From a bacterium (GTDB lineage: Bacteria; Patescibacteriota; Patescibacteriia; HK-STAS-PATE-3): a stretch of DNA of 64,000 bases. Shown one piece after another: positions 2,217 to 63,982 of the stretch. Numbering within the stretch: position 1 is the stretch's first letter; each line of letters starts with the position of its first letter. The notes below the pieces were generated by a model. That model saw only the letters and a program-made list of their open reading frames with translations, had not been told where the DNA came from and ran no database searches. The position numbers and the translations under genes were made by a program. The stretch covers positions 21,369 through 85,368 of the forward strand of contig JAZDMR010000011.1 in assembly GCA_043800725.1 (NCBI GenBank), in the 5' to 3' direction.

Positions 2217-3617
2217 TTAGCTGAACTGATTAATAATTACTCGAATCGCGAAGTAGATGAAGAATATGGAAATGCCGGACATAATGATATTGGTCAGCCA
2301 GTTTGGCCTCAAGGGTTTGGGCAGGCGAGTATTGTTTAAATAAATCAGGAAAGGCGTATAAATAGCCATGGTTAAGCCGCCCAAGACCGCGGAAATAACC
2401 AGCAGCGTTAATGGTTGCTCCAAAGGCAATAATGCGGCTCCGATTATCACTACCGCGACAATGATTGTGTAATATAGCCGGCTAAGAGAGATGTTTTTTA
2501 ACCAAGATAGTTTACTGGAAAACGGACCGACTCGCGAGTTGGTATACAAAATATTGCTGACGATTCTTGTTAGTGCATCGATCACGGTCCACATGACCGA
2601 GAAGAGCATCAAGAAAGCCATGATCAGGAAAAGATAATAGCCGACCTGTCCCCAATTATCACTAAATATTTTAGCCTGGGTCACAGCCACATCCAGACCT
2701 TCTGGCACCAGGCCCTGAGGCGTCAAGACCACATAAGCGTTAACGCTGAGCAATATCAAAGTAATCAAACCTAACAGCCAGAAAATAATGCCCTGGTCGA
2801 CCCGGACGTATCTCATCCAGCCTTTCCAGCGGCGCAAATTTTTTTCATTAGGCTCAAAGGTAAAGCCGGTCGGTTCGACAGCTTCGGATTTGCCAGTGAT
2901 TGGGTTTTCAATCCTGCCAACATACTTAGCCATACCCAGCTGCTTATCCCGATACCATAGCGATACGGCCAGATTAAGCATGCCGCCAGCCCCGGCAAAC
3001 ACCACGGCGCTTAATAGCAAATTAATGTCTATGCCCTCGGGGATATGCCCGAAATTTACCAAGCCCTTGAATGTTTCTACCAGATCAGATCCGGATAAGT
3101 TGAAAAAGCTGATGGTTAGCAACATCACAAAAAAAACAGGGACAGTTATTTTTAAAGATTTTTCCAGCATGGCGTAGGCGGCCCGTCCGCTAAAAGTCAG
3201 CACCAAAACCAGGGCCAGAGTAATCCAGGACCACATCAAATGACTGCCAAAACCAAACAGCTCGCGTAGCAGAGTGCCGATTGAGCTGGCCCAGCCCGGC
3301 CAGATATACAGCAAAATAGCGGAAAAAAACCAAAAAACGGTTGACCATTTTAATACCCGTGCCGAAGTAGCAAAAAAGCCTTCACCAGTAGCTAGGGCAT
3401 GGCGAGCTACTTCCTGGTTGATGAAATATTGAAAACTAATTCCTAAAAGAGCCAGCCAAAGCAGACCCAAGCCGAATTTGGTAATTAAATGCGGCCAGAT
3501 TATTAGCTCGCCAGTGCCGATAGCCAAGCCCATAACCACCACCCCGACACCCAAAGCCTTGGTCCAGTTTGGCGGTGCGGGAAGTTCTCGTTTTTCTAAT
3601 GGAGGATAGCGACCCAT
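2217..3617 (-). CDS. Nramp-family (MntH-like) divalent metal transporter homolog, divergent
   Basis: 466-aa polytopic membrane protein; TM1/TM2 region resembles Nramp (LLW...L...Q...A..ATG) but the DPGN motif is replaced by GTGE. Confidence 0.45.
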   Translation of the reverse strand: MGRYPPLEKRELPAPPNWTKALGVGVVVMGLAIGTGELIIWPHLITKFGLGLLWLALLGISFQYFINQEVARHALATGEGFFATSARVLKWSTVFWFFSAILLYIWPGWASSIGTLLRELFGFGSHLMWSWITLALVLVLTFSGRAAYAMLEKSLKITVPVFFVMLLTISFFNLSGSDLVETFKGLVNFGHIPEGIDINLLLSAVVFAGAGGMLNLAVSLWYRDKQLGMAKYVGRIENPITGKSEAVEPTGFTFEPNEKNLRRWKGWMRYVRVDQGIIFWLLGLITLILLSVNAYVVLTPQGLVPEGLDVAVTQAKIFSDNWGQVGYYLFLIMAFLMLFSVMWTVIDALTRIVSNILYTNSRVGPFSSKLSWLKNISLSRLYYTIIVAVVIIGAALLPLEQPLTLLVISAVLGGLTMAIYTPFLIYLNNTRLPKPLRPNWLTNIIMSGISIFFIYFAIRVIINQFS

Positions 3618-7771: not shown

Positions 7772-7890
7772 GCGGGAATAGCTCAGTGGCTAGAGCGGCT
7801 GACTTTTAATCAGTAGGTTGGGGGTTCTCCGCCACCGAAAGTAGGAATAGTTGGCGGATCAGCCTCAAGCCGAGAGTCCCATTTCCCGTA
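7772..7890 (+). tRNA. tRNA-Lys(TTT) carrying a roughly 43-nt insertion in the T-arm region
   Basis: acceptor GCGGGAA paired with TTCCCGT (G1-U72), canonical D-arm and anticodon loop CTTTTAA; after GGGGGTTC a hairpin (TCCGCCA..TGGCGGA) insert precedes GAGTCCCA and the acceptor 3' strand. Confidence 0.45.
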
Positions 7891-13286: not shown

Positions 13287-13868
13287 ATGTCGCATATAAA
13301 TGATTCTATCACCAAAATTAAGATTTGTTGGAGCCTGTATCAGAATGGAGTATCCCTGGAAAGGGTTCCAGATCAATTGGGCATTCATCGGGCGACTGTC
13401 TATCGGTGGATCTATGGGATTAAATTAAAAGGTATTAATAAGTTCATACAAGACTATCGGAACGCCAAGAAAGGCAGACGTCAGCCTCGAAAAACAGATC
13501 CTGTGATTAAGGCTCGTATTTATGCCATTCGTGACGAGTACAAGAGATGTTGTGGTGAAAAGATCCGTTTCATTCTCAAGCGTGATTACGATACTGCTAT
13601 TGGCACAGCAACCATCTACCGTATCTTAGGAGAAAAGTACCAATTACGAGGTAAATGGAAGAAATACAGCAAAAGAGGCTTTGTTAGAAAAGGCCTAAAA
13701 CCAAGGGAAGTTATTCAAACGGATACTGTTGATCTGGGTAGTCTCTATGCTTTCACCGCTATTGATACATTCACAAAAGAAGCCAGCTTTATGTTTTGCG
13801 TTCATTATGCATATGGTGATAAATGCGCCACATGGATATGTCGATGGGACTGTTCTGTTCTTTGTTAA
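13287..13868 (+). pseudogene. truncated IS481/IS3-like DDE transposase fragment (HTH + start of the integrase core)
   Basis: 'HRATVYRW' HTH and 'VIQTDTVDLGSLYAFTAIDTFTKEA' at the start of the DDE core, then the frame ends with most of the integrase (rve) core missing. Confidence 0.55.
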
Positions 13869-14044: not shown

Positions 14045-14581
14045 TTATTTTAATAGCTGCCAATTCATATACACATACGGCGGCTGGCCATATTTTTCCG
14101 GTAGGCCGTGTTTGCGATAATTAAATTGGATGTAGCGAAGGGTGTTGTAATAACGTTCTGGTGTATCAACAATGCGGAAGTTATATCTGGGTTGCCAGAT
14201 CCGGCCTTGGTGAATGGAACGGGAAAAGGTGCCTTTGATGGATTGCATTAAACCGGATATGTAGCGGTCATCACAGCGCGGCATACAGCGCACCTTAGAA
14301 AAAGTGCGCTGTGGGGATGGGGAAGATTGTGGGGGCGGGGAACACCATTCATTGTCACAGCGCAGTCTTTCCAGGCTGCGCTGGGGTTTTACCAGCAGGT
14401 GTAAATGATCCGGAAGAATGCAAAAAGCCAGCAAATCGAATTTCTTAAGATCGCAAGCGTTGAATATTATCTTATTCAACCGTCCTGCCATCTCCACATT
14501 TTCAAACACCCGCTGACGATACGTAGTCACTGCCGTAATAAAATACGGGTATTCGTTTTGGTAGATCAGACGCTGTGTCAC
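14045..14581 (-). mobile_element. REP-associated tyrosine transposase (RAYT) / IS200-like TnpA
   Basis: HuH motif 'ILPDHLHLLV', N-terminal 'YFITAVTTYRQRVF', C-terminal 'YIQFNYRKHGL' (RAYT Y-x-x-N-x-x-K-x-G-L). Confidence 0.7.
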
Positions 14582-56912: not shown

Positions 56913-58367
56913 GTGCCGAAATCCAAGGTTTTTTTAATAGTATTGGTATCAGTATTATTGGGCGTGGCCGGACAGCGCTGGCTTGGTTTAGAATACTGGC
57001 ATTGTTTATTGGTGATTGGAGCTGGTATTGTCATTCTCTTGGCAGAAAAAAGAGTGCTGGTTGTGGGTCTAGCACTAGCTGGTTTTGGCGTGGGCTTGCT
57101 TCGAGTAGCTATTGATCCGCCGTTACAAATAATTCCAGAAGGCAAAGGCGAGTTTGTGGGACGCGTTGTCCAGCCACCTGACATTCGGCGCGACCATATC
57201 AAATACACAATTCAAATAACAAATAACAAATCACAAAATACAAAAAATATTATTGAAGCTAGGGTTTTAGTTAAATCAAGTTTATACCCTGTCTATGACT
57301 TGGGCGATGTAATATCTTTTAATTGCTTTATCAGGCACCCAGGAGATATCGAGGGTTTTGCTTATGATAAGTATTTGGCTTTGAATGGCATAACCGCGAG
57401 TTGCTCCAGCTATTATCTGACCCTTGAGAAGTCAGGCAGCTGGTCCTGGGCGGGGATGCTTTTTCAGGGCAGGCAGTGGGTGAATGATCAGTTGAACAAA
57501 GTGTTACCTGAGCCTGAATCGTCGTTCACGTCAGGCTTATTAATAGGTGCCAGGCGCGGGCTTCCAGAATGGCTGATGGAGTCTTTTAATCGTACCGGCA
57601 CGACGCACTTGATCGCCTTGTCTGGTTTTAACATCACCATCATCACCAATATTATTATGCTGGTAGCTATTCAAGTGATTGGCAGGAAACGGGCTTTTTG
57701 GCTGGTGCTTGTTGCCGTATCTTTGTTTGTGATGTTTGTCGGCGGACAAGCTTCGATTGTCAGAGCCGGCATCATGGGCATGATCGCGTCTTTGGGTTTA
57801 CATATTGGTAGGCCCAGTCGAGGCTTAAACGCCTTGATTTTAAGCGGTGTTTTAATGGTTATAGCCAGCCCCAGGATTTTGTTGGATGATGTGGGATTCC
57901 AATTGTCATTTGCCGCTACCTTAGGATTGATTTCTTTATCCGGGCATGCAGAAAGTTTGTTTAGCTTTGTGCCGGAAAAGCTTGAGCTTAGGCAAACTCT
58001 ATCGGCCACGACGGCGGCCACTGTTTTTACTTTACCGATTATCTTAAGCACCTTTGGCAGGATTTCCCTGGTCAGCTTGCCCGTGAATTTATTGGTCCTG
58101 CCATTTATTCCCATTGCTATGGCTTTGGGCGTGTTAGGGGTGGTTGGCAGCTTATTCGGGGCCTCGGTTGGAATAGTGTTTGCCTTGCCTGCTTGGCTGG
58201 TATTAAGGCTGATTATAATGGTGGTGCAGTTTTTCAGCGTGCCGGATTGGGCGTTAATCAATTTTGGTAATGGTGTCGGATACTGGTCAATGGTTTTGTA
58301 TGTACCGATTTTCTTTTTTGTTGTTTGGTTAAACAAGCGATCAAGATTAATTTCCAAACCATTATGA
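56913..58367 (+). CDS. comEC: ComEC/Rec2 competence membrane channel, N-terminal (DUF4131 + Competence) part
   Basis: polytopic; 'HLIALSGFNITII' matches the ComEC competence-domain SG(L/F)H/N motif. Confidence 0.8.
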   Translation: MPKSKVFLIVLVSVLLGVAGQRWLGLEYWHCLLVIGAGIVILLAEKRVLVVGLALAGFGVGLLRVAIDPPLQIIPEGKGEFVGRVVQPPDIRRDHIKYTIQITNNKSQNTKNIIEARVLVKSSLYPVYDLGDVISFNCFIRHPGDIEGFAYDKYLALNGITASCSSYYLTLEKSGSWSWAGMLFQGRQWVNDQLNKVLPEPESSFTSGLLIGARRGLPEWLMESFNRTGTTHLIALSGFNITIITNIIMLVAIQVIGRKRAFWLVLVAVSLFVMFVGGQASIVRAGIMGMIASLGLHIGRPSRGLNALILSGVLMVIASPRILLDDVGFQLSFAATLGLISLSGHAESLFSFVPEKLELRQTLSATTAATVFTLPIILSTFGRISLVSLPVNLLVLPFIPIAMALGVLGVVGSLFGASVGIVFALPAWLVLRLIIMVVQFFSVPDWALINFGNGVGYWSMVLYVPIFFFVVWLNKRSRLISKPL

Positions 58368-59197
58368 AGTTGATTAAAATGTTCATGGCTGTTGTTTTAT
58401 TGGGAGCCGGGTTTTGGTTTTCCAGTACGTTTAGAACAATTGACAAGGTGCAGGTGACAACACTGGACGTGGGTCAAGGAGATGCAATTTTAATCAAGGC
58501 GCCGAACAATTTTGAAGTACTGATTGACAGCGGGCCGGACAATAAAGTAGTCGAGAAAGTCGGGGAGTATTTACCTTTTTTTGATCGTGAAATAGAGCTG
58601 GCAATATTGACTCATCCGGACGCCGACCATGTAAATGGTTTTGCTCAGCTTGGTAGTCGTTATCGCTTGAAAAATGTGGTTATTACAGGAGTGGCTCATT
58701 CCTTGCCTTCTTATATCGAATTTCTCAAGGTGATCAAAGAACAAGGAAGTCAAGTTTTTTATAATAACCCCGGACAGAAATTCGAGATTCCCGGAGGTGT
58801 TTTAACAATCCTGGCGCCGGAAGGAAATTATCTTGACAAAGAGGTTGACGACCAAAATGCCACGTCAATAGTGGCCAGACTAGACGTTGGAAGCAACTCG
58901 TTTCTTTTTACGGGAGACGCTGATATTGGCGAAGAAAAATGGCTGATTAATTCAGGACAAAATATTCAAGTAAATGTATTAAAAGTAGGGCATCATGGCT
59001 CCAAAAGCTCGACAAGCCCAGAGTTTGTCAAGGCAGTTAATCCGGATATTGGCTTGATTTCAGCAGGGCAAGATAATAAGTTTGGTCACCCTCACCAAGA
59101 GTTACTGGGTAGATTGGATAAGGCACTAATTCTCTCAACCGCTATTGACGGAGACATTTGTATTGAGGTGGACGAGGAAGGGCTGGGGAGGTGTTGA
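58325..59197 (+). CDS. ComEC-type metallo-beta-lactamase domain protein (ComEC C-terminal module as a separate ORF)
   Basis: 'LDVGQGDAILIK', 'ILTHPDADHVNGF', 'LKVGHHGSKSST'; overlaps the upstream ORF by 43 nt in a different frame. Confidence 0.8.
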   Translation: MVKQAIKINFQTIMKLIKMFMAVVLLGAGFWFSSTFRTIDKVQVTTLDVGQGDAILIKAPNNFEVLIDSGPDNKVVEKVGEYLPFFDREIELAILTHPDADHVNGFAQLGSRYRLKNVVITGVAHSLPSYIEFLKVIKEQGSQVFYNNPGQKFEIPGGVLTILAPEGNYLDKEVDDQNATSIVARLDVGSNSFLFTGDADIGEEKWLINSGQNIQVNVLKVGHHGSKSSTSPEFVKAVNPDIGLISAGQDNKFGHPHQELLGRLDKALILSTAIDGDICIEVDEEGLGRC

Positions 59198-59238: not shown

Positions 59239-59700
59239 AGGAGAATGCGAATGTTAGCCAAAATGGCTAAGAAAAGCGATTATTGGTCTTGACAGCCTTT
59301 AAATACTATGTTATTATGTGCTGTTACGCTAATAAAGTGCGAACCTTACAAACCATTGAGGAGAGAGCATTTACCACGGAAACCAAAGCCAGGTGTGGTA
59401 AATGTAGTTGGCTAATTTTTATTTAAGGTAGTGTTTTACTGCCTGCTCTCTGTTTTCATGAATTCTCGTGAATACCTCAAACATATAGAGCAGACAATAA
59501 CTCACTACCTTTTTATTTTCCGTAAAAATATGTAATGGAAAATAAATCTACGAAGCTTAAGCGAAGGAGGTTGTTTCCTTAAAAATCGGATTGAGATTAT
59601 CGATGGCCACAGCAATTAATTTTTAATGGGCCACTCATCACTCGATCCGACTTTTAGGGAAACAAGCCAGTCCTGAATTTAATTCAGGGACGGTACTGAC

Positions 59701-59832
59701 ATGGAGGGGGGAATCAAGCTGGCGGATATGATTGTCCAGGGTTGCGAACTCAGAGTTTTCATAAGAAGCCAATGGAGCAAGTGAACTTCGGTTCAAAACT
59801 TGCTCACCATCTCACCTCCATATCAGTGCTGA
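59701..59832 (+). repeat. roughly 110-130-nt structured noncoding element, copy 1
   Basis: closing helix TGGAGG/CCTCCA; internal GAGCAAG-TGAACTTCGGTTCA-AAACTTGCTC hairpin; anti-SD-like CACCTCC at the 3' end. Confidence 0.55.
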
Positions 59833-60092
59833 AACAAGAAAGGCTCAGACTTGAGGTATCCCACGGCGTCAGACTTTTGCCGGACGTTGTGGAAATAATT
59901 GATACCTCAAATCTGAACCGTTCTTCAAAACAACCCACCCCCAATCCTCACATGAAAGGCTCAAGCAAGATCATAGATCAAACTTGGGCCTCCTTCCCAA
60001 GCGCGACAGCATTGTTGCTCTTAGGAAGGAAGCTCGTTATACCTCGACCGAAATAAAATATCGGGTTACGCGAAAGATTCCTCTGTACTAAT

Positions 60093-60256
60093 ATGGAGGG
60101 GGTCCCCCTACGCCAAGGCTTCGGGGGACTAAGGAGAGTTAAGTTGGTGGATATGATTATTTCGGGTGCAAACTTGAAATTTTCATAAGAAGCCAGCGGA
60201 GCAAGTGAACTTCGGTTCAAAATTTGCTCACCATCTCACCTCCAGATTAGTGCTGA
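60093..60256 (+). repeat. roughly 110-130-nt structured noncoding element, copy 2
   Basis: about 85% identical core (60147-60256) to 59721-59832; same ATGGAGGGGG start and CACCTCCA end. Confidence 0.55.
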
Positions 60257-60394
60257 GAATTACGGAACTTTGACAATTATCTCCTTAAGTCGTTCTCATT
60301 AAATCATTGTAAACTCTCTTGATTCTTGTCGAATAAGTATAGAGTCGGAGAACGATTTTAGGAGGGCCCTGATTAAAGAATCGGGGCTATCAAT

Positions 60395-60652
60395 TTGCTT
60401 GTTAGTGGATATAAAAACAAATTTAACATTGAGGAGGGGCTTATGTCTTGGAAAAATGTTGGTATTTGGTTGGTAAAAGTCATCGCAGCCTTATGGATTG
60501 GGGCACTTATAATGTTTCTTTTCATCTTTCCGGATCTGCCGGATGATTGTTATCCGGTGTACCTATCCTTTTACTGGCCTTGGTTGGCGATATTCGCTGT
60601 GGTAACTGCATTCTTGCCCTGGCGGCGAATAGCACGGTTAGTATTGAGATAG
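60395..60652 (+). CDS. small membrane protein
   Basis: 85 aa, two TM; RBS GAGGAGGGG. Confidence 0.35.
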   Translation: MLVSGYKNKFNIEEGLMSWKNVGIWLVKVIAALWIGALIMFLFIFPDLPDDCYPVYLSFYWPWLAIFAVVTAFLPWRRIARLVLR

Positions 60653-60732
60653 TTGTACATCAATGGCGAATGAGGCGCCATAAGTTACTTCGGTAACACT
60701 TCTCACTTGCCATGAACCTCTATAGTTCGTGG

Positions 60733-60777
60733 CTTCCCCCGAGTTTCCCTTTAATCAAGAAGGGGTGCTCAGGGGAG
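60733..60777 (+). repeat. bracket-hairpin repeat, copy A (CTTCCCCCGAG..CCCTT-TAATCAAG-AAGGG..CTCAGGGGA)
   Basis: near-identical to copy B. Confidence 0.6.
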
Positions 60778-60882
60778 GATCAAGTACTGTTCTTTGCATT
60801 TTCCTCCACCTCCTTATGAAAGGCCGCTTAGGCATTATTATCTCAAAAAGTTTGAGATTCCAAAAAAAGTAAGGAGGAGAAA

Positions 60883-61419
60883 ATGTCTACATTTGTGTAT
60901 TGTCCGACTACTGGAGACCGTGTCTTCGCACAAAAGGACACGGAAGGAATAGTTGTTGTAAAATGGCAAAATGAATGCCGCCATGTGGTTGGTGGGGTCC
61001 ATTTTTACTTTAGTGCGGCTGAGCCAAAGAAACATTGGCGGAGTCGCGCGAAAGTTCTCGCCACGGCAATTATCAAAAACGCCTGTGGCATTGCTTGGGA
61101 TGAGTGTGGAGAAGTACACCTGATCGTTCCTCACTCGAAAGCCTGGGCAACCTTCGAAATTATGGGTGCCGCATCCCCTGACGGCAACCCTGACCATAAC
61201 AAGGTCGCCATGATTCATAATGGGGTGGCCTGGCCATTGTTCGGCGATGCTGGACAGTGGGAGGTCATCAGGGAACTCCGACCTTCTGAGGATGGAGTTG
61301 CTCTTTGGAAAAGGGAGGGCAATAGGGTAGAAGTTACCCTATCCGATTCTGAGGAGGCCGTGTACGCGGCAAATTGGCACATCGCTGAAGTTAGCGGTGG
61401 TGCGGAGGAAATAGCATAG
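60883..61419 (+). CDS. hypothetical protein (about 50% GC)
   Basis: strong RBS AAGGAGGAG; 178 aa; no motif. Confidence 0.45.
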   Translation: MSTFVYCPTTGDRVFAQKDTEGIVVVKWQNECRHVVGGVHFYFSAAEPKKHWRSRAKVLATAIIKNACGIAWDECGEVHLIVPHSKAWATFEIMGAASPDGNPDHNKVAMIHNGVAWPLFGDAGQWEVIRELRPSEDGVALWKREGNRVEVTLSDSEEAVYAANWHIAEVSGGAEEIA

Positions 61420-61464
61420 TAACTCGGGGAGCGTGAAATATTTAAATCAGTATTCACGTTCCCC

Positions 61465-61512
61465 ACTTCCCCCGAGTTTCCCTTTAATCAAGAAGGGGTG
61501 CTCAGGGGAAGT
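61465..61512 (+). repeat. bracket-hairpin repeat, copy B (ACTTCCCCCGAG...CTCAGGGGAAGT), preceded by the GGGGAGCGTGAA/TTCACGTTCCCC hairpin
   Basis: perfect outer stem; 46 nt after the upstream ORF stop. Confidence 0.6.
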
Positions 61513-61569
61513 GCGCACCTTTAAACTTTACGGCGACTGGCTGTCGATGAAGCCAAATGAGGAGGTGGT

Positions 61570-61785
61570 ATGATGTTTCCCTTTGATATGAGTGGGGTTT
61601 TTTTGATGATAGCAGCATTCGCCATGGTAATGGTAGGAGTTGTTCCTAATAAGGGCAGACCCACTGTGAGTCTTAAGGGAACGGTAATAATTATTATTGC
61701 CTGTCTGCTCTGCGCTCTCATTATGTTGGAGATGTTTGGGGTGATTGACTTACTTCCAAAGGGCTTCTCGTCAGACCCTTGGTAA
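61570..61785 (+). CDS. small membrane protein
   Basis: RBS GAGGAGGTGG; 71 aa, 2 TM. Confidence 0.4.
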   Translation: MMFPFDMSGVFLMIAAFAMVMVGVVPNKGRPTVSLKGTVIIIIACLLCALIMLEMFGVIDLLPKGFSSDPW

Positions 61786-61856
61786 ATAAAAAACCTAAAC
61801 AAGTCAGCACCATCGCTCTTTATTTAAAGATCCTTATAGTCGCGTGACTATAGGAT

Positions 61857-61902
61857 CTTCCCCTAAGTACCCCTTTGAATAAGAACGAGTGTTTGGGGGA
61901 AG
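61857..61902 (+). repeat. bracket-hairpin repeat, copy C (CTTCCCCTAAG...TTTGGGGGAAG), preceded by the GATCCTTATAGTC/GACTATAGGATC palindrome
   Basis: same bracket ends with a divergent interior. Confidence 0.5.
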
Positions 61903-62339
61903 TTCATTCAACAGTTCGGGGCAGGGATGCTTAAACGGAAGGGATTTCCGGCCTTTAACGAGGTAAGCGTTAAGTCCTAGTGACTGCAGGGGTTCTCCGC
62001 CTCCATATTTCTCAGAAATATTTCGGCGGATCCACCGTAGCAATACTGAGTTTTGCGGAGGCGGAGACTCCTCGCCGTCCTTGCCCTCGATTTCCCAGCA
62101 CCTGGACGCGATTGAAGGGTGCTGGAAGGGCCGCTATCGTAGGGATAGTTGGTTATAAGCCCTGAACTTTCTCGTTTTAAAATGCGAGATTGATTCAGGG
62201 CTTGTCCGTTACTCGTTTAGTATTATAACTATCGAGTAACGGACCTTTTCCCGAGTTCCGAATTCTAATTTCGGGATTCAGAAGAAGGAATGCCCTTTTA
62301 AACCAGGTGTAAAAAAACCGCTCAAGAGAAGGAGACGTC

Positions 62340-62618
62340 ATGACTTTGGAGGATGATTATATGAGGAATAAACTCATACAGTGGAAAAAAGAGTTCATCC
62401 AAGCTGGGGCCATGTGTTTTGGCGGGATGTCTATTTTTCCTGCCATTATTGCAGACTTAATTGCTGTAGTCATAGCAGTTTTGGTCTGGACTTGTTCTTC
62501 GGATAGGATCTTTCCTGTATGGGGTAAGTTTTCCCTGTGCAAGTTGGTGACCAATGCGATGGACCAATACGGGCCTCAATCGCAACCAATCACTATTGAT
62601 AAAGGGGGTGGATTATGA
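62340..62618 (+). CDS. hypothetical small protein
   Basis: RBS AGAAGGAGA; 92 aa with a hydrophobic core. Confidence 0.4.
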   Translation: MTLEDDYMRNKLIQWKKEFIQAGAMCFGGMSIFPAIIADLIAVVIAVLVWTCSSDRIFPVWGKFSLCKLVTNAMDQYGPQSQPITIDKGGGL

Positions 62619-62836
62619 AATCGAAAGAGCAGCCCGCCCCACTCACGGAGAGACACATCCCGTGGCTAATAGCACTGGTGACCCTTGGATTGGTCGAAAG
62701 TGTGATAGCTTTTTTTGGGGTTTTTGTCTACGTATTTTGGGGTTCGTTTCCTCGATGGAGCCAGTGGCCCGCTACGTTCCGAATCCTCAAAAAAGGTTTT
62801 GGGATAAGTCGTGAGAATGAGGAGGAGGTTTCATGA
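62615..62836 (+). CDS. small membrane protein
   Basis: ATGA overlap with the upstream ORF; 2 TM. Confidence 0.4.
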   Translation: MKSKEQPAPLTERHIPWLIALVTLGLVESVIAFFGVFVYVFWGSFPRWSQWPATFRILKKGFGISRENEEEVS

Positions 62837-63114
62837 GCAAGCTAAATCTGGTTTGTGTGGCAGTGGTACTTTTCTTGATTGTCGGCTCAACAAATGCCAA
62901 CGCTGGCATTCACATCCAGCGGAATGTGTCGGATATTGTCGAAGCAGGCGCGTTGTGGCTTCCGATTGATTCCTGTCGCGAAGGAATGGTCACGACTGTG
63001 ACCATTATAAACGACACCGACGAGATGTTCGAAGTCGTAGCCCTGGAGAGCAACACACATCAATCCGAGGTGATGAGCAACCAGGGCGAGACAGCCAAAA
63101 AATTACCATTTTAA
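62833..63114 (+). CDS. small secreted protein
   Basis: RBS GAGGAGGAGG; signal peptide; ATGA overlap with the upstream ORF. Confidence 0.45.
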   Translation: MSKLNLVCVAVVLFLIVGSTNANAGIHIQRNVSDIVEAGALWLPIDSCREGMVTTVTIINDTDEMFEVVALESNTHQSEVMSNQGETAKKLPF

Positions 63115-63405
63115 TTAGATGGTTCAATGCTCAGCGCCGGTACGAGGTTTGCGTTGGCTCCGAGCAATGGCCCTGTGTTGTAGGGTCGTTTGAGTATGCC
63201 AGACCGTAGTATTTTTTGGGAAACGAGAGAAGGATAGGATGTGGAACGGAGGTTCAATGTGAGGCAGCTGAACTAGGCCCGCAAGAAAAAAAGCGCATGG
63301 TTGGCGTAACCATGGACGCACAGGGGCCCATAATAAAAATACTGTGTTTTAAAAAATACGCACCCCGGGAGGAGACTCGAGCTTAAGGCTCATATTGTCT
63401 CCTCC

Positions 63406-63488
63406 CTTCCCCCGAGCTAATTAGCTTCTCAAGTCTCCACGGATCTGAGTCCGAGGATTCCTTCGAAGACTAATTAATTCAGGGGAAG
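63406..63488 (+). repeat. bracket-hairpin repeat, copy D (CTTCCCCCGAG ... CAGGGGAAG, 83 nt), preceded by the GGGAGGAGAC/GTCTCCTCCC hairpin
   Basis: same bracket ends with a longer variable interior. Confidence 0.5.
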
Positions 63489-63523
63489 TATGTTCTTTAA
63501 GTTATGAATCGCAAAAAGTCGGT

Positions 63524-63982
63524 GTGCTTTTAAAAAGAAACGAGAGAGGAGGAAAGGATATGGAAGCCGCACTTTTTATCCTAGCAATGATGGTGATGGT
63601 GCTGAAGGTTCTTGGTGGGATCGTTATCCCTGCTATTCTGATCTGTTGCTTGGGTGCATTACTTGGTCGGCTGATTCGGGTCCATAACAGCTTCTGGTTG
63701 AAACTATGGTTCATACCAGTTTTGGCGTTCAGTGCATTCATGTGTTGTTCGCACAGCCTGGGACTCATCTCCGACGGAAAGCAGATCGTGAGCTTGACCC
63801 TATTTGGATCGACCGCGTTGCTTTGGACCAGCTTCTTGTCAGTCTGGTTCAATTTACGTCTATTTCGCTGGATACCGGATACAGTCAGTTTCCAAGCACT
63901 GTTTTTAGGGAGTAGGATTCTGTCCCGGATGCCGGTTTCTGCGCAGCGGAAAGTGCTCCAGATCGCTGGAATACGTGGATGA
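63524..63982 (+). CDS. hypothetical membrane protein
   Basis: RBS GAGGAGGAAAGG; 152 aa, 4 TM. Confidence 0.45.
   Translation: MLLKRNERGGKDMEAALFILAMMVMVLKVLGGIVIPAILICCLGALLGRLIRVHNSFWLKLWFIPVLAFSAFMCCSHSLGLISDGKQIVSLTLFGSTALLWTSFLSVWFNLRLFRWIPDTVSFQALFLGSRILSRMPVSAQRKVLQIAGIRG

Follow-up and report, generated by a model that had tools for sequence, protein, structure and literature searches.

An interval between comEC, a gene of DNA uptake, and a tRNA gene of an uncultured ultra-small Patescibacteria bacterium carries an array in which small ORFs alternate with paired hairpins. The arrangement raises the question of whether the hairpins act on DNA, as sites bounding gene cassettes, or on RNA, as signals dividing a transcript. 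Patescibacteria have tiny genomes, little known regulation and few recognised mobile-element platforms, and this locus, found next to competence genes in two distant genomes, combines variable orphan cargo, unusual ribosome-binding-site usage, conserved non-coding RNAs and a covarying two-hairpin signal with a mismatch. Action on RNA would define a new operon-punctuation or processing motif and imply a cognate factor in these organisms, and action on DNA would amount to a new system of gene cassettes that lacks an integron integrase. In both cases the elements provide a concrete, testable motif for metatranscriptome and long-read surveys. The whole stretch analysed, 64,000 nucleotides, is referred to as the window; coordinates are window positions on the + strand unless a contig is named.

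Two-hairpin elements

Each element consists of a gene-specific hairpin A and a directly abutting hairpin B (gap 0–1 nt). The base of hairpin B is conserved as CTTCCCC-Y-GAG…YTC-A-GGGGAAG, that is, 7 bp between a pyrimidine-rich 5' arm and a 3' arm of GGGGAAG type, a non-Watson-Crick pair and 3 bp, with a variable top. Nine such elements were identified, six within the window and three just past its end (positions 1577-1654, 2076-2172 and 2534-2603 of L002, an overlapping contig from the same sample). All nine lie on the gene strand and span 5.1 kb, the other 59 kb of the window being without copies, and a scan of the 65.8 kb sequence found no B-type copy outside 59.96-65.04 kb. The exact sequence CTTCCCCCGAG occurs three times in the window, every time in the array region, and bracket-forming matches to it with up to two mismatches are confined to the same region. 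Within the window the bracket is not a general companion of ordinary genes.

The initial annotation had recorded four copies of a bracket-like element, each preceded by a unique palindrome. All four were recovered as the B hairpins of c1 (60709..60778; A 60709-60733, B 60733-60778), c2 (61426..61512; A 61426-61464, B 61466-61511), c3 (61828..61902; A 61828-61858, B 61857-61902) and c4 (63376..63488; A 63376-63405, followed by an 83-nt B at 63406-63488). Besides these four and the three on L002, a relaxed scan revealed c0 (59958..60030; fold −36.9 kcal/mol), in which A at 59958-59990 is followed by a B of the form TCCTTCC-C-AAG…CTT-A-GGAAGGA, and a further element, cX (62204..62288), pairs an A hairpin, GTCCGTTACTCG…CGAGTAACGGAC, with a degenerate B, CTTTTCCCGAG…TTCAGAAGAAG. 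The hairpins preceding the four brackets are strong, with folding z-scores of −3.8 to −8.8. Their supposed uniqueness does not extend to all elements, as the A hairpins at 62204 and L002 1577 have a stem in common and the A+B units of cX and c5 resemble diverged duplicates. Hairpin B measures 40–103 nt, and its interior is variable as had been described, except that the B hairpins of c1 and c2 are 100% identical over 44 nt and that of c3 is a 73% version of the same hairpin. One same B was found with three unrelated A hairpins. A Logan contig, L048, terminates within c1 at window position 60762, which was read as a repeat-induced assembly break; the Logan contigs showed breaks at repeats and no variants.

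In an alignment built by hand in the register of the structure, 89% of the cells of the B base were paired and both-side changes were present in 6 of 11 pairs. No shuffle or register slide attained these values. Position 8 of hairpin B was non-Watson-Crick (C·A or A·C) in 11 of 14 copies. In 13 of 15 elements folding favoured the sense strand over the antisense strand; this bias is not evidence for action on the sense strand because base composition alone produced it in control sequence. Rfam searches returned no relevant match, and the elements appear to be undescribed so far.

Neighbouring elements are spaced 388–1161 nt apart with ORFs in between. Hairpin A begins 6–56 nt past the stop codon in six of the seven cases with a preceding ORF, and elements never lie inside ORFs. 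Elements also come after a non-coding RNA module (c0) and, in the Nomurabacteria sequence L049, after a tRNA-like gene, and therefore mark the ends of RNA units generally.

Conserved flanks and variable cargo

The left boundary of the locus is formed by the palindrome TTAGCCAAAATGGCTAA and a following TG-extended sigma-70-type promoter (59254..59317; TTGACA-17-TATTAT), which had 11 of 12 consensus matches in a promoter scan. L049, L052-54 and L055 retain both the palindrome and the promoter. The promoter is followed by a conserved leader or short RNA (59318..59520), with a homolog in L049, whose end is a canonical intrinsic terminator or attenuator consisting of a long hairpin and a T-run. Beyond the leader lie two copies of a structured non-coding RNA module (59690..59835 and 60082..60260), related by a 93-nt direct repeat at 88% identity. 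The modules match no Rfam family, and their consensus fold with the L049 and L055 homologs showed covariation in 14 of 36 pairs. A deeply conserved hairpin with B-like arms, TCTCCTTAAG…TTTTAGGAGG, is present at 60277..60366 and is 83% identical to its Nomurabacteria homolog (blastn, L049 11419-11554).

Seven array ORFs, rather than the six originally counted, were found in the window. ORF1 (60443..60652) encodes 69 aa with two predicted membrane helices behind a GGAGG site and matched only itself among 1.84 billion representatives. ORF2 (60883..61419; 178 aa, soluble) is likewise an orphan, with a self match only among 5.8 billion proteins, no match in Pfam, PHROG, PADLOC or NCBIfam, and an uninformative AF2 model. 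ORF3 (61570..61785; 71 aa) is a membrane orphan. After some 300 nt without a convincing ORF upstream of cX, ORF4 (92 aa), ORF5 (73 aa) and ORF6 (93 aa, signal peptide) occupy 62340..63114 and are translationally coupled through 4-nt overlaps; ORF6 has one distant homolog (P0007, 34% over 83 aa). ORF7 (63560..63982; 140 aa, four predicted membrane helices) and the next ORF past the window, ORF8, are adjacent paralogs. The order on L002 is c5, ORF8, c5b, c6, ORF9, a canonical terminator and a tRNA-Asp-like sequence. Overall the array ORFs are almost without relatives.

Near-perfect GGAGG ribosome-binding sites had been noted in the initial annotation, and such a site indeed stands 5–9 nt before the ATG of every array ORF in the window. 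The observation gains weight since 36 of the 42 ordinary genes of the window are without this motif, and the strong sites are found on array genes in both genomes and are absent from most ordinary genes. Codon usage and ribosome-binding-site usage of the cargo are atypical for this genome. The GC content of the region, originally given as about 50%, is raised only slightly, at 46–47% against about 44%.

A matching architecture was found at the syntenic locus in the complete genome of Ca. Nomurabacteria CP060223.1 (comEC, conserved non-coding RNA, array, tRNA-Asp). This was the nearest relative found for comparison of the array, its ComEC-MBL protein being 52% identical to that of the source genome. 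Its array holds eight elements in a single orientation, and elements are also found there after the genes for a pilin and a prepilin peptidase and after a tRNA-like gene. The flanks of the two loci are syntenic; the gene content of the arrays is wholly different.

Proposed punctuation of transcripts

The reading favoured here, tentatively and with confidence somewhat short of even, is that the elements are lineage-specific two-hairpin punctuation signals of the sense RNA, which process, stabilise or insulate transcripts within a variable accessory region. The element probably acts on RNA. The punctuated modules would include single ORFs, groups of ORFs and non-coding RNAs, together with a tRNA-like gene in the relative. 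The region would be transcribed through the elements, read-through being expected because these have no T-tracts. In keeping with this reading, the promoter scan found no strong internal promoter in the array. A protein or ribonuclease, for which RNase III, RNase P or a dedicated binding protein are candidates, would then recognise the conserved base and mismatch of hairpin B. By cutting or binding around the A/B junction, this factor would leave the upstream RNA capped by hairpin A, shielded from 3' exonucleases, and would separate the modules, and the downstream cistrons would each be translated from their own strong ribosome-binding site. The strong GGAGG sites fit such independent initiation on a structured polycistronic RNA.

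Hairpins between cistrons are familiar from the RNase III sites of phage T7, the REP stabiliser of E. coli malE-malF and the put RNA of phage HK022. As in the T7 sites and the malE-malF stabiliser, stable mismatched stem-loops would stand between cistrons of a long transcript here, and as with processing hairpins the upstream RNA would keep a 3' hairpin; the abutting stems, 0–1 nt apart, recall the two-stem put RNA. We know of no sequence similarity between the elements and any of these hairpins. The present elements further differ in having their conservation at the foot of the helix, pyrimidine in the 5' arm and purine in the 3' arm.

Two observations sit less easily with transcript punctuation. 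The leader ends in a strong terminator, so that the promoter feeding the array is putative. In addition, an RNA role alone does not explain the identical B hairpins of c1 and c2 beside A hairpins and flanks that are unrelated, nor the mosaic make-up of the B interiors and 3' flanks of E1, E2, E3 and E4 in L049. Both require gene conversion or some other copying process, and the identical B copies beside unrelated A hairpins may keep cassette mobility at the DNA level, or mobility of RAYT type, alive.

In another explanation, judged unlikely, the elements would be ordinary gene-end hairpins, serving as non-canonical terminators or attenuators without a dedicated factor and kept alike by tandem duplication of gene plus terminator and by short-tract gene conversion. 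Tandem hairpins downstream of genes are common in some bacteria, the elements are placed after stop codons, and the ORF7/ORF8 paralogs and the duplicate-like A+B units of cX and c5 suggest such duplication. However, a terminator scan reported none of the elements, and the 10 nt after hairpin B held 0–5 T residues, the exception being an interrupted T run after c4, although this genome elsewhere uses canonical hairpin and T-run terminators, one ending the leader and another between the last ORF and the tRNA promoter. With hairpin A followed by B rather than by T's, the elements were rejected as canonical intrinsic terminators. Also speaking against duplicated gene ends are the occurrence of one B with three unrelated A hairpins and a B base and position-8 mismatch that were kept despite a difference of about 48% in ComEC-MBL and unrelated surrounding coding sequence. 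The alternative offered in the initial annotation, a family of terminators or REP elements within a hypervariable island, came nearer than its integron comparison but was not exact, T-tracts being absent and the elements not being spread over the other 59 kb.

Possible cassette and REP-type mobility

The initial annotation had compared the region with attC-bounded cassettes, and the structural analogy holds. As in integron cassette arrays and CALINs, imperfect hairpins that all point the same way stand between promoterless ORFs, which are unrelated and mostly orphan. The hairpins have a conserved helix base, a distal part of varying length and one conserved non-paired position, and copies of the site resemble one another within an array. 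Membership of the integrons found no support in the tests applied. Searches of ORFs of at least 120 aa with Pfam and NCBIfam found no integrase and no tyrosine or serine recombinase in 60 kb upstream and 1.8 kb downstream, and the genes called in the ±10 kb around the CP060223.1 array included no recombinase. The attC core RYYYAAC/GTTRRRY, whose mismatch with the bracket ends had been noted from the outset, was absent from all 17 B hairpins in a regex search of both ends and both strands. Finally, hairpin A, an extra gene-specific hairpin at every site, is without an attC counterpart.

A looser version of this idea, also improbable, would make the array an integron-like cassette platform in which B belongs to a new class of folded single-strand DNA site, where a recombinase with its gene elsewhere captures, excises and shuffles ORF or non-coding modules. 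The conserved base, mismatch and variable top of B would then correspond to the R box, extrahelical bases and variable terminal structure of attC. Also in keeping with it are the shared orientation of sites and promoterless ORFs, each ORF with a ribosome-binding site of its own, some modules that are non-coding, cargo that is nearly all orphan and atypical in codon and ribosome-binding-site usage, identical or mosaic B copies next to unrelated flanks, and the two genomes whose syntenic flanks enclose entirely different genes. Besides the missing recombinase, attC core and hairpin A counterpart, housekeeping-type genes (pilin, prepilin peptidase and tRNA-like) stand between sites in the relative, the adjacent paralogs ORF7 and ORF8 point to local duplication rather than capture, and, unlike integrons, the array keeps the same place, between comEC and tRNA-Asp, in both of these distant genomes. 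Carried further, and again improbable, is the proposal that the comEC-to-tRNA-Asp interval of Nomurabacteria-like Patescibacteria could be an integrase-less, integron-like gene-capture platform. Hairpin B would there represent a new class of folded single-strand DNA recombination site, built from a box of 7 bp, a mismatch for recognition and a top that varies, and used in trans by a Y1/RAYT-type or other recombinase, which would assemble foreign genes dependent on strong ribosome-binding sites beside the DNA-uptake machinery.

The remaining source of mobility considered was a RAYT, a Y1 HUH enzyme, which would have copied B as a REP/REPIN-like palindrome and pasted it next to existing hairpins; this was judged quite improbable. 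RAYTs bind imperfect hairpins and require a stem mismatch for binding (PMC3479197), and the elements share with REPs, BIMEs and REPINs the form of extragenic imperfect palindromes with a stem mismatch, functional in REPs and conserved here at position 8 in 11 of 14 copies. A RAYT-like protein encoded at 14045-14581 scored 76 bits with the NCBIfam model REP_Tyr_transpos (the cut-off is 80), a RAYT of 102.8 bits is found in a relative as an insertion exactly at the array locus, and identical B copies adjoin unrelated sequence. REPs are also often transcribed within operons, where they stabilise upstream mRNA. However, RAYTs are flanked by their REPs, which bear a conserved 5' tetranucleotide at the hairpin foot (PMC3479197). 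The RAYT-like gene here lies 46 kb from the array and is interrupted by unrelated CAGCGCA hairpins, no B-type hairpin was found near it, and the RAYT of the relative has unrelated CCGGTTGACC hairpins on its flanks. What lies 5' of B is the unconserved end of hairpin A, without a conserved tetranucleotide. Dispersed REPs or BIMEs were thus rejected, given also the confinement of B to 59.96-65.04 kb within the 65.8 kb scanned. All 17 elements share one orientation, unlike BIMEs, and neither the bipartite A+B design nor the length and variable interior of B has a REP counterpart.

CRISPR or TIGR-type guide arrays were dismissed on the basis of the wide, ORF-filled spacing and the lack of PADLOC matches. 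The Neisseria DUS and Haemophilus USS resemble the elements as short conserved words, inverted and placed after genes, and the array adjoins competence genes (comEC here, also pilin and PilD in the relative). DUS and USS are over-represented genome-wide, whereas matches here with up to two mismatches numbered 16 against 12.9 expected; a DNA uptake sequence was rejected, the 11-mer being restricted to the array, where all exact matches lie.

A hairpin array downstream of a split comEC

The window is a stretch of ordinary chromosome from a Patescibacteria (CPR) bacterium; among its genes are those for DprA, Mfd, Der, HisRS, FtsA, FtsZ, class II ribonucleotide reductase, HtrA, a release factor and ComEC. 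ComEC is split into two genes overlapping by 4 nt, which encode the competence channel (56913-58367) and the MBL nuclease domain (58364-59197), a split kept in all relatives examined. The best non-self match of the MBL protein was found in Ca. Nomurabacteria (52% identity).

The array of small ORFs and hairpins that the initial annotation placed at 60395-63982 is present as claimed, and further elements were found besides. Each element consists of a gene-specific hairpin (A) abutting a hairpin with a conserved base (B). The annotated succession of a variable and then a conserved hairpin was borne out, with an A preceding every B at a gap of 0-1 nt; the A sequences are unrelated, and the combined A+B folds gave z-scores of -3.8 to -8.8 against shuffled controls. 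The exact sequence CTTCCCCCGAG occurs three times in the window, each time inside the array region, and its bracket-forming matches with up to two mismatches were all confined to the same region in a search of the 64 kb. A degenerate element on the gene strand, cX (62204-62288), was located by mismatch search and folding, and another on that strand, c0 (59958-60030), lying 5' of the annotated interval, by a relaxed scan and folding. The Logan contig L002, from the same sample, is identical to the window across their overlap and adds 1.8 kb. This extension contains three elements, two ORFs and a canonical hairpin-plus-T-run terminator, beyond which lie a tRNA-Asp promoter and tRNA-like sequence. 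In total, nine A+B elements lie within 5.1 kb, every one on the gene strand, and hairpin A starts 6-56 nt past the stop codon in six of the seven that follow an ORF. A relaxed structural scan of the remaining 59 kb found no C-rich B copy.

The complete Ca. Nomurabacteria genome CP060223.1 (locus L049) is syntenic with the window from the reductase through ComEC-MBL, 3' of which it carries the same palindrome, promoter and leader, followed by a region homologous to the non-coding RNA stretch, in which the window hairpin at 60277-60366 is matched at 83% identity. A 5 kb array of unrelated ORFs with eight A+B elements between them ends, as here, at a tRNA-Asp. The genes preceding these elements include those for a type IV pilin and a prepilin peptidase, orphan ORFs, and a 99-nt tRNA-Val(AAC)-like gene inside the array (L049 13441-13539; called by ARAGORN, not by the Rfam tRNA model). 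The synteny and shared elements, with unrelated ORFs, indicate that the element family and its locus are conserved over a large evolutionary distance but the cargo is not. The comEC-array arrangement is absent in a more distant ComEC-MBL relative (48% identity). Apparent differences 3' of comEC among the loci L049, L050 and L051 were rejected as real variation, being gene-calling differences and repeat-induced contig ends.

The cargo is largely orphan. ORF2 matched only itself among 5.8 billion proteins, and its AF2 model (pLDDT 41) was unusable. When ORF1 and ORF3-7 were concatenated for an exhaustive protein search of 1.84 billion representatives, ORF1, 3, 5, 6 and 7 gave self matches only, apart from one remote homolog that ORF6 has (34% over 83 aa); this match indicates that at least ORF6 is a real gene. 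Pfam, PHROG, PADLOC and NCBIfam gave no match to the array ORFs. ORF7 and ORF8, the latter beyond the window on L002, are diverged paralogs, and codon-usage scores are low for most array ORFs. The strong ribosome-binding sites reported earlier were found as a GGAGG site on every array ORF, whereas 36 of 42 ordinary window genes have no Shine-Dalgarno motif within 20 nt, a contrast repeated at the Nomurabacteria locus; GGAGG is 3-10 times denser on the + strand of the array than in the whole window. The reported rise in the GC content of the array above that of most of the window is real, but slight.

Pairing and copying of hairpin B

The 11-nt arms of B were aligned by hand, in structural register, for 14 copies from two genomes. 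In this alignment 89% of the cells are paired and 6 of the 11 arm pairs show changes on both sides, among them C-G to A-T in c6, T-A in cX and CTCTCC/GGAGAG in the Nomurabacteria subfamily; neither column shuffles nor register slides came near these pairing values. In 11 of the 14 copies the pair at position 8 is non-standard (C·A or A·C). B is thus built from a 7-bp box, its 5' arm pyrimidine and its 3' arm GGGGAAG/GGAGAGG-like, followed by the conserved mismatch, another 3 bp and a freely varying top of 19-80 nt. A sense-over-antisense folding preference in 13 of 15 elements was discarded as support, as it vanished against a composition control and is explained by base composition.

A repeat finder showed the B hairpins at 60733 and 61466 (c1 and c2) to be 100% identical over 44 nt, and that at 61857 (c3) to be a 73% copy of them. 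Such near-identical B subfamilies, c1/c2 here and E1/E4 and E2/E3 in L049, stand beside unrelated A hairpins, and L049 shows mosaic combinations of B interiors with 3' flanks. Together these observations indicate that some copying or conversion process acts on B. At L049 12300-12326, 12859-12885 and 14775-14797, a TTCTCT lying downstream offers the 3' arm of B (GGAGAG) an alternative partner, and their pairing would give a small third hairpin. The copies show compensatory differences here, and the arrangement may be a structural switch.

Interpretation of the A+B elements

The A+B elements are tentatively read as RNA punctuation, that is, cis-acting sense-RNA signals showing where the RNA units of a read-through region end. 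This fits their strict co-orientation with the genes, their placement behind ORFs, behind non-coding RNA modules and behind a tRNA-like gene, the absence of T-tracts with canonical termination solely at the interval end, the lack of a neighbouring recombinase, the covarying helix with its conserved mismatch, and the strong ribosome-binding site owned by each cistron. The base of B would be recognised by a factor, and cleavage would leave the upstream RNA capped at its 3' end by hairpin A. Candidates for such a factor would be RNase III, a dedicated RNA-binding protein and RNase P, the last acting on the 7-bp acceptor-like helix. RNA punctuation by itself does not account for three things: B copies that are identical or mosaic, an orphan cargo whose translation signals look foreign, and the complete turnover of cargo between syntenic flanks. 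These leave some room for a DNA-level reading, either an integron-like site or RAYT-type copying.

Plain duplicated terminators or attenuators, a terminator family having been one alternative offered initially, are improbable. No T-tract follows the elements and a terminator scan called none of them, while canonical terminators are in use in the source genome, one ending the leader and one past the last ORF. A DNA-level, integron-like recombination site, which would accommodate the copied B hairpins and the exchanged cargo, is about as improbable or slightly more so: searches of 60 kb upstream, of 1.8 kb downstream and of ±10 kb around the L049 array turned up no integrase, and none of 17 sites examined has the attC core motifs. 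The noted departure of the ends from the canonical attC core thus held, and the array is not filed as an integron.

The REP alternative, in its REP/RAYT form, is a little less probable again. The window does contain a RAYT-like gene at 14045-14581 (-), a Y1 transposase match of 76 bits (cut-off 80), and a relative carries a RAYT inserted at this very locus. Compared with REP features (PMC3479197), however, the B hairpins share a single orientation, show neither dispersal nor a conserved 5' tetranucleotide and are not placed around the RAYT; the RAYTs here and in the relative are associated with other hairpins. The RAYT-like gene is interrupted by two CAGCGCA…TGCGCTG hairpins that occur nowhere else in the window, and is adjoined by an IS481-like N-terminal transposase fragment (13287-13868, +). 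The remaining probability falls to something else. Of further candidates, DNA uptake sequences were ruled out on distribution, CRISPR/TIGR on spacing and the lack of a PADLOC match, a filamentous phage for want of any large ORF or phage-family match in the interval, and a phage or plasmid because blastn against phages and plasmids gave no match.

The elements have no Rfam match, and no described family was found to match by Rfam, literature searches and public sequence scans. The exact bracket pattern, sought in 185,579 species genomes, JGI metagenomes and IMG/VR, matched only unrelated single hairpins or other repeat families, so that the family is either narrow or diverged beyond the exact pattern; generic scans for tandem hairpins, whether by stem rules or by MFE, let through too much to be informative. 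The elements are placed with the repeated extragenic or intercistronic palindromes, here in an under-studied phylum; their bipartite design is unusual, and they are restricted to one conserved locus and conserved across genomes.

Structured RNAs and tRNA-like sequences around the array

Beyond ComEC-MBL, at 59254-59520, a conserved palindrome TTAGCCAAAATGGCTAA is followed 3' by a near-consensus promoter and a leader of ~200 nt that ends in a long hairpin with a T-run. This arrangement is conserved in three or four related genomes, and the leader could be a regulated small RNA or conditional terminator. A structured RNA module lies in two tandem copies at 59690-59835 and 60082-60260, with homologs at L049 11305-11445 and, in another relative, L055 5118-5300. 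Its closing stem is GGAGGGG…CACCTCC, and 14 of 36 predicted pairs covary among four sequences; the module matched no Rfam family, and public scans with the non-coding RNA core returned no match. The hairpin at 60277-60366 carries a Shine-Dalgarno-like AGGAGG in its 3' arm, may form a pseudoknot between TTGACAA (60266) and TTGTCGAA (60324), and may be a translational or riboswitch-like element. In the 290-nt non-coding gap from ORF6 to c4, a canonical minus-strand terminator (hairpin and T-run, 63296-63314) suggests an antisense or small RNA.

In another relative, contigs (L052 10948-11064, L053 and L054) stop 117-214 nt past ComEC-MBL, just beyond the conserved palindrome. They come from two or more sequencing runs, one of them reported in seven samples, and from a MAG; the contig taken from the MAG continues into an ORF fragment on the reverse strand. 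These ends hint at an insertion or repeat at this hotspot. Past the tRNA-Asp promoter, L002 holds the 5' part of tRNA-Asp in two copies (3229-3330 and 3363-3399), the first with a 33-nt insertion, a non-pairing anticodon stem and no ARAGORN call; these may represent a tRNA that was interrupted or duplicated, or the scar of an old integration. Elsewhere in the window, a 62-nt tRNA-like match at 7772-7833, negative by ARAGORN and detected by Rfam only (37 bits), adjoins tRNA-Lys and tRNA-Thr(AGT).
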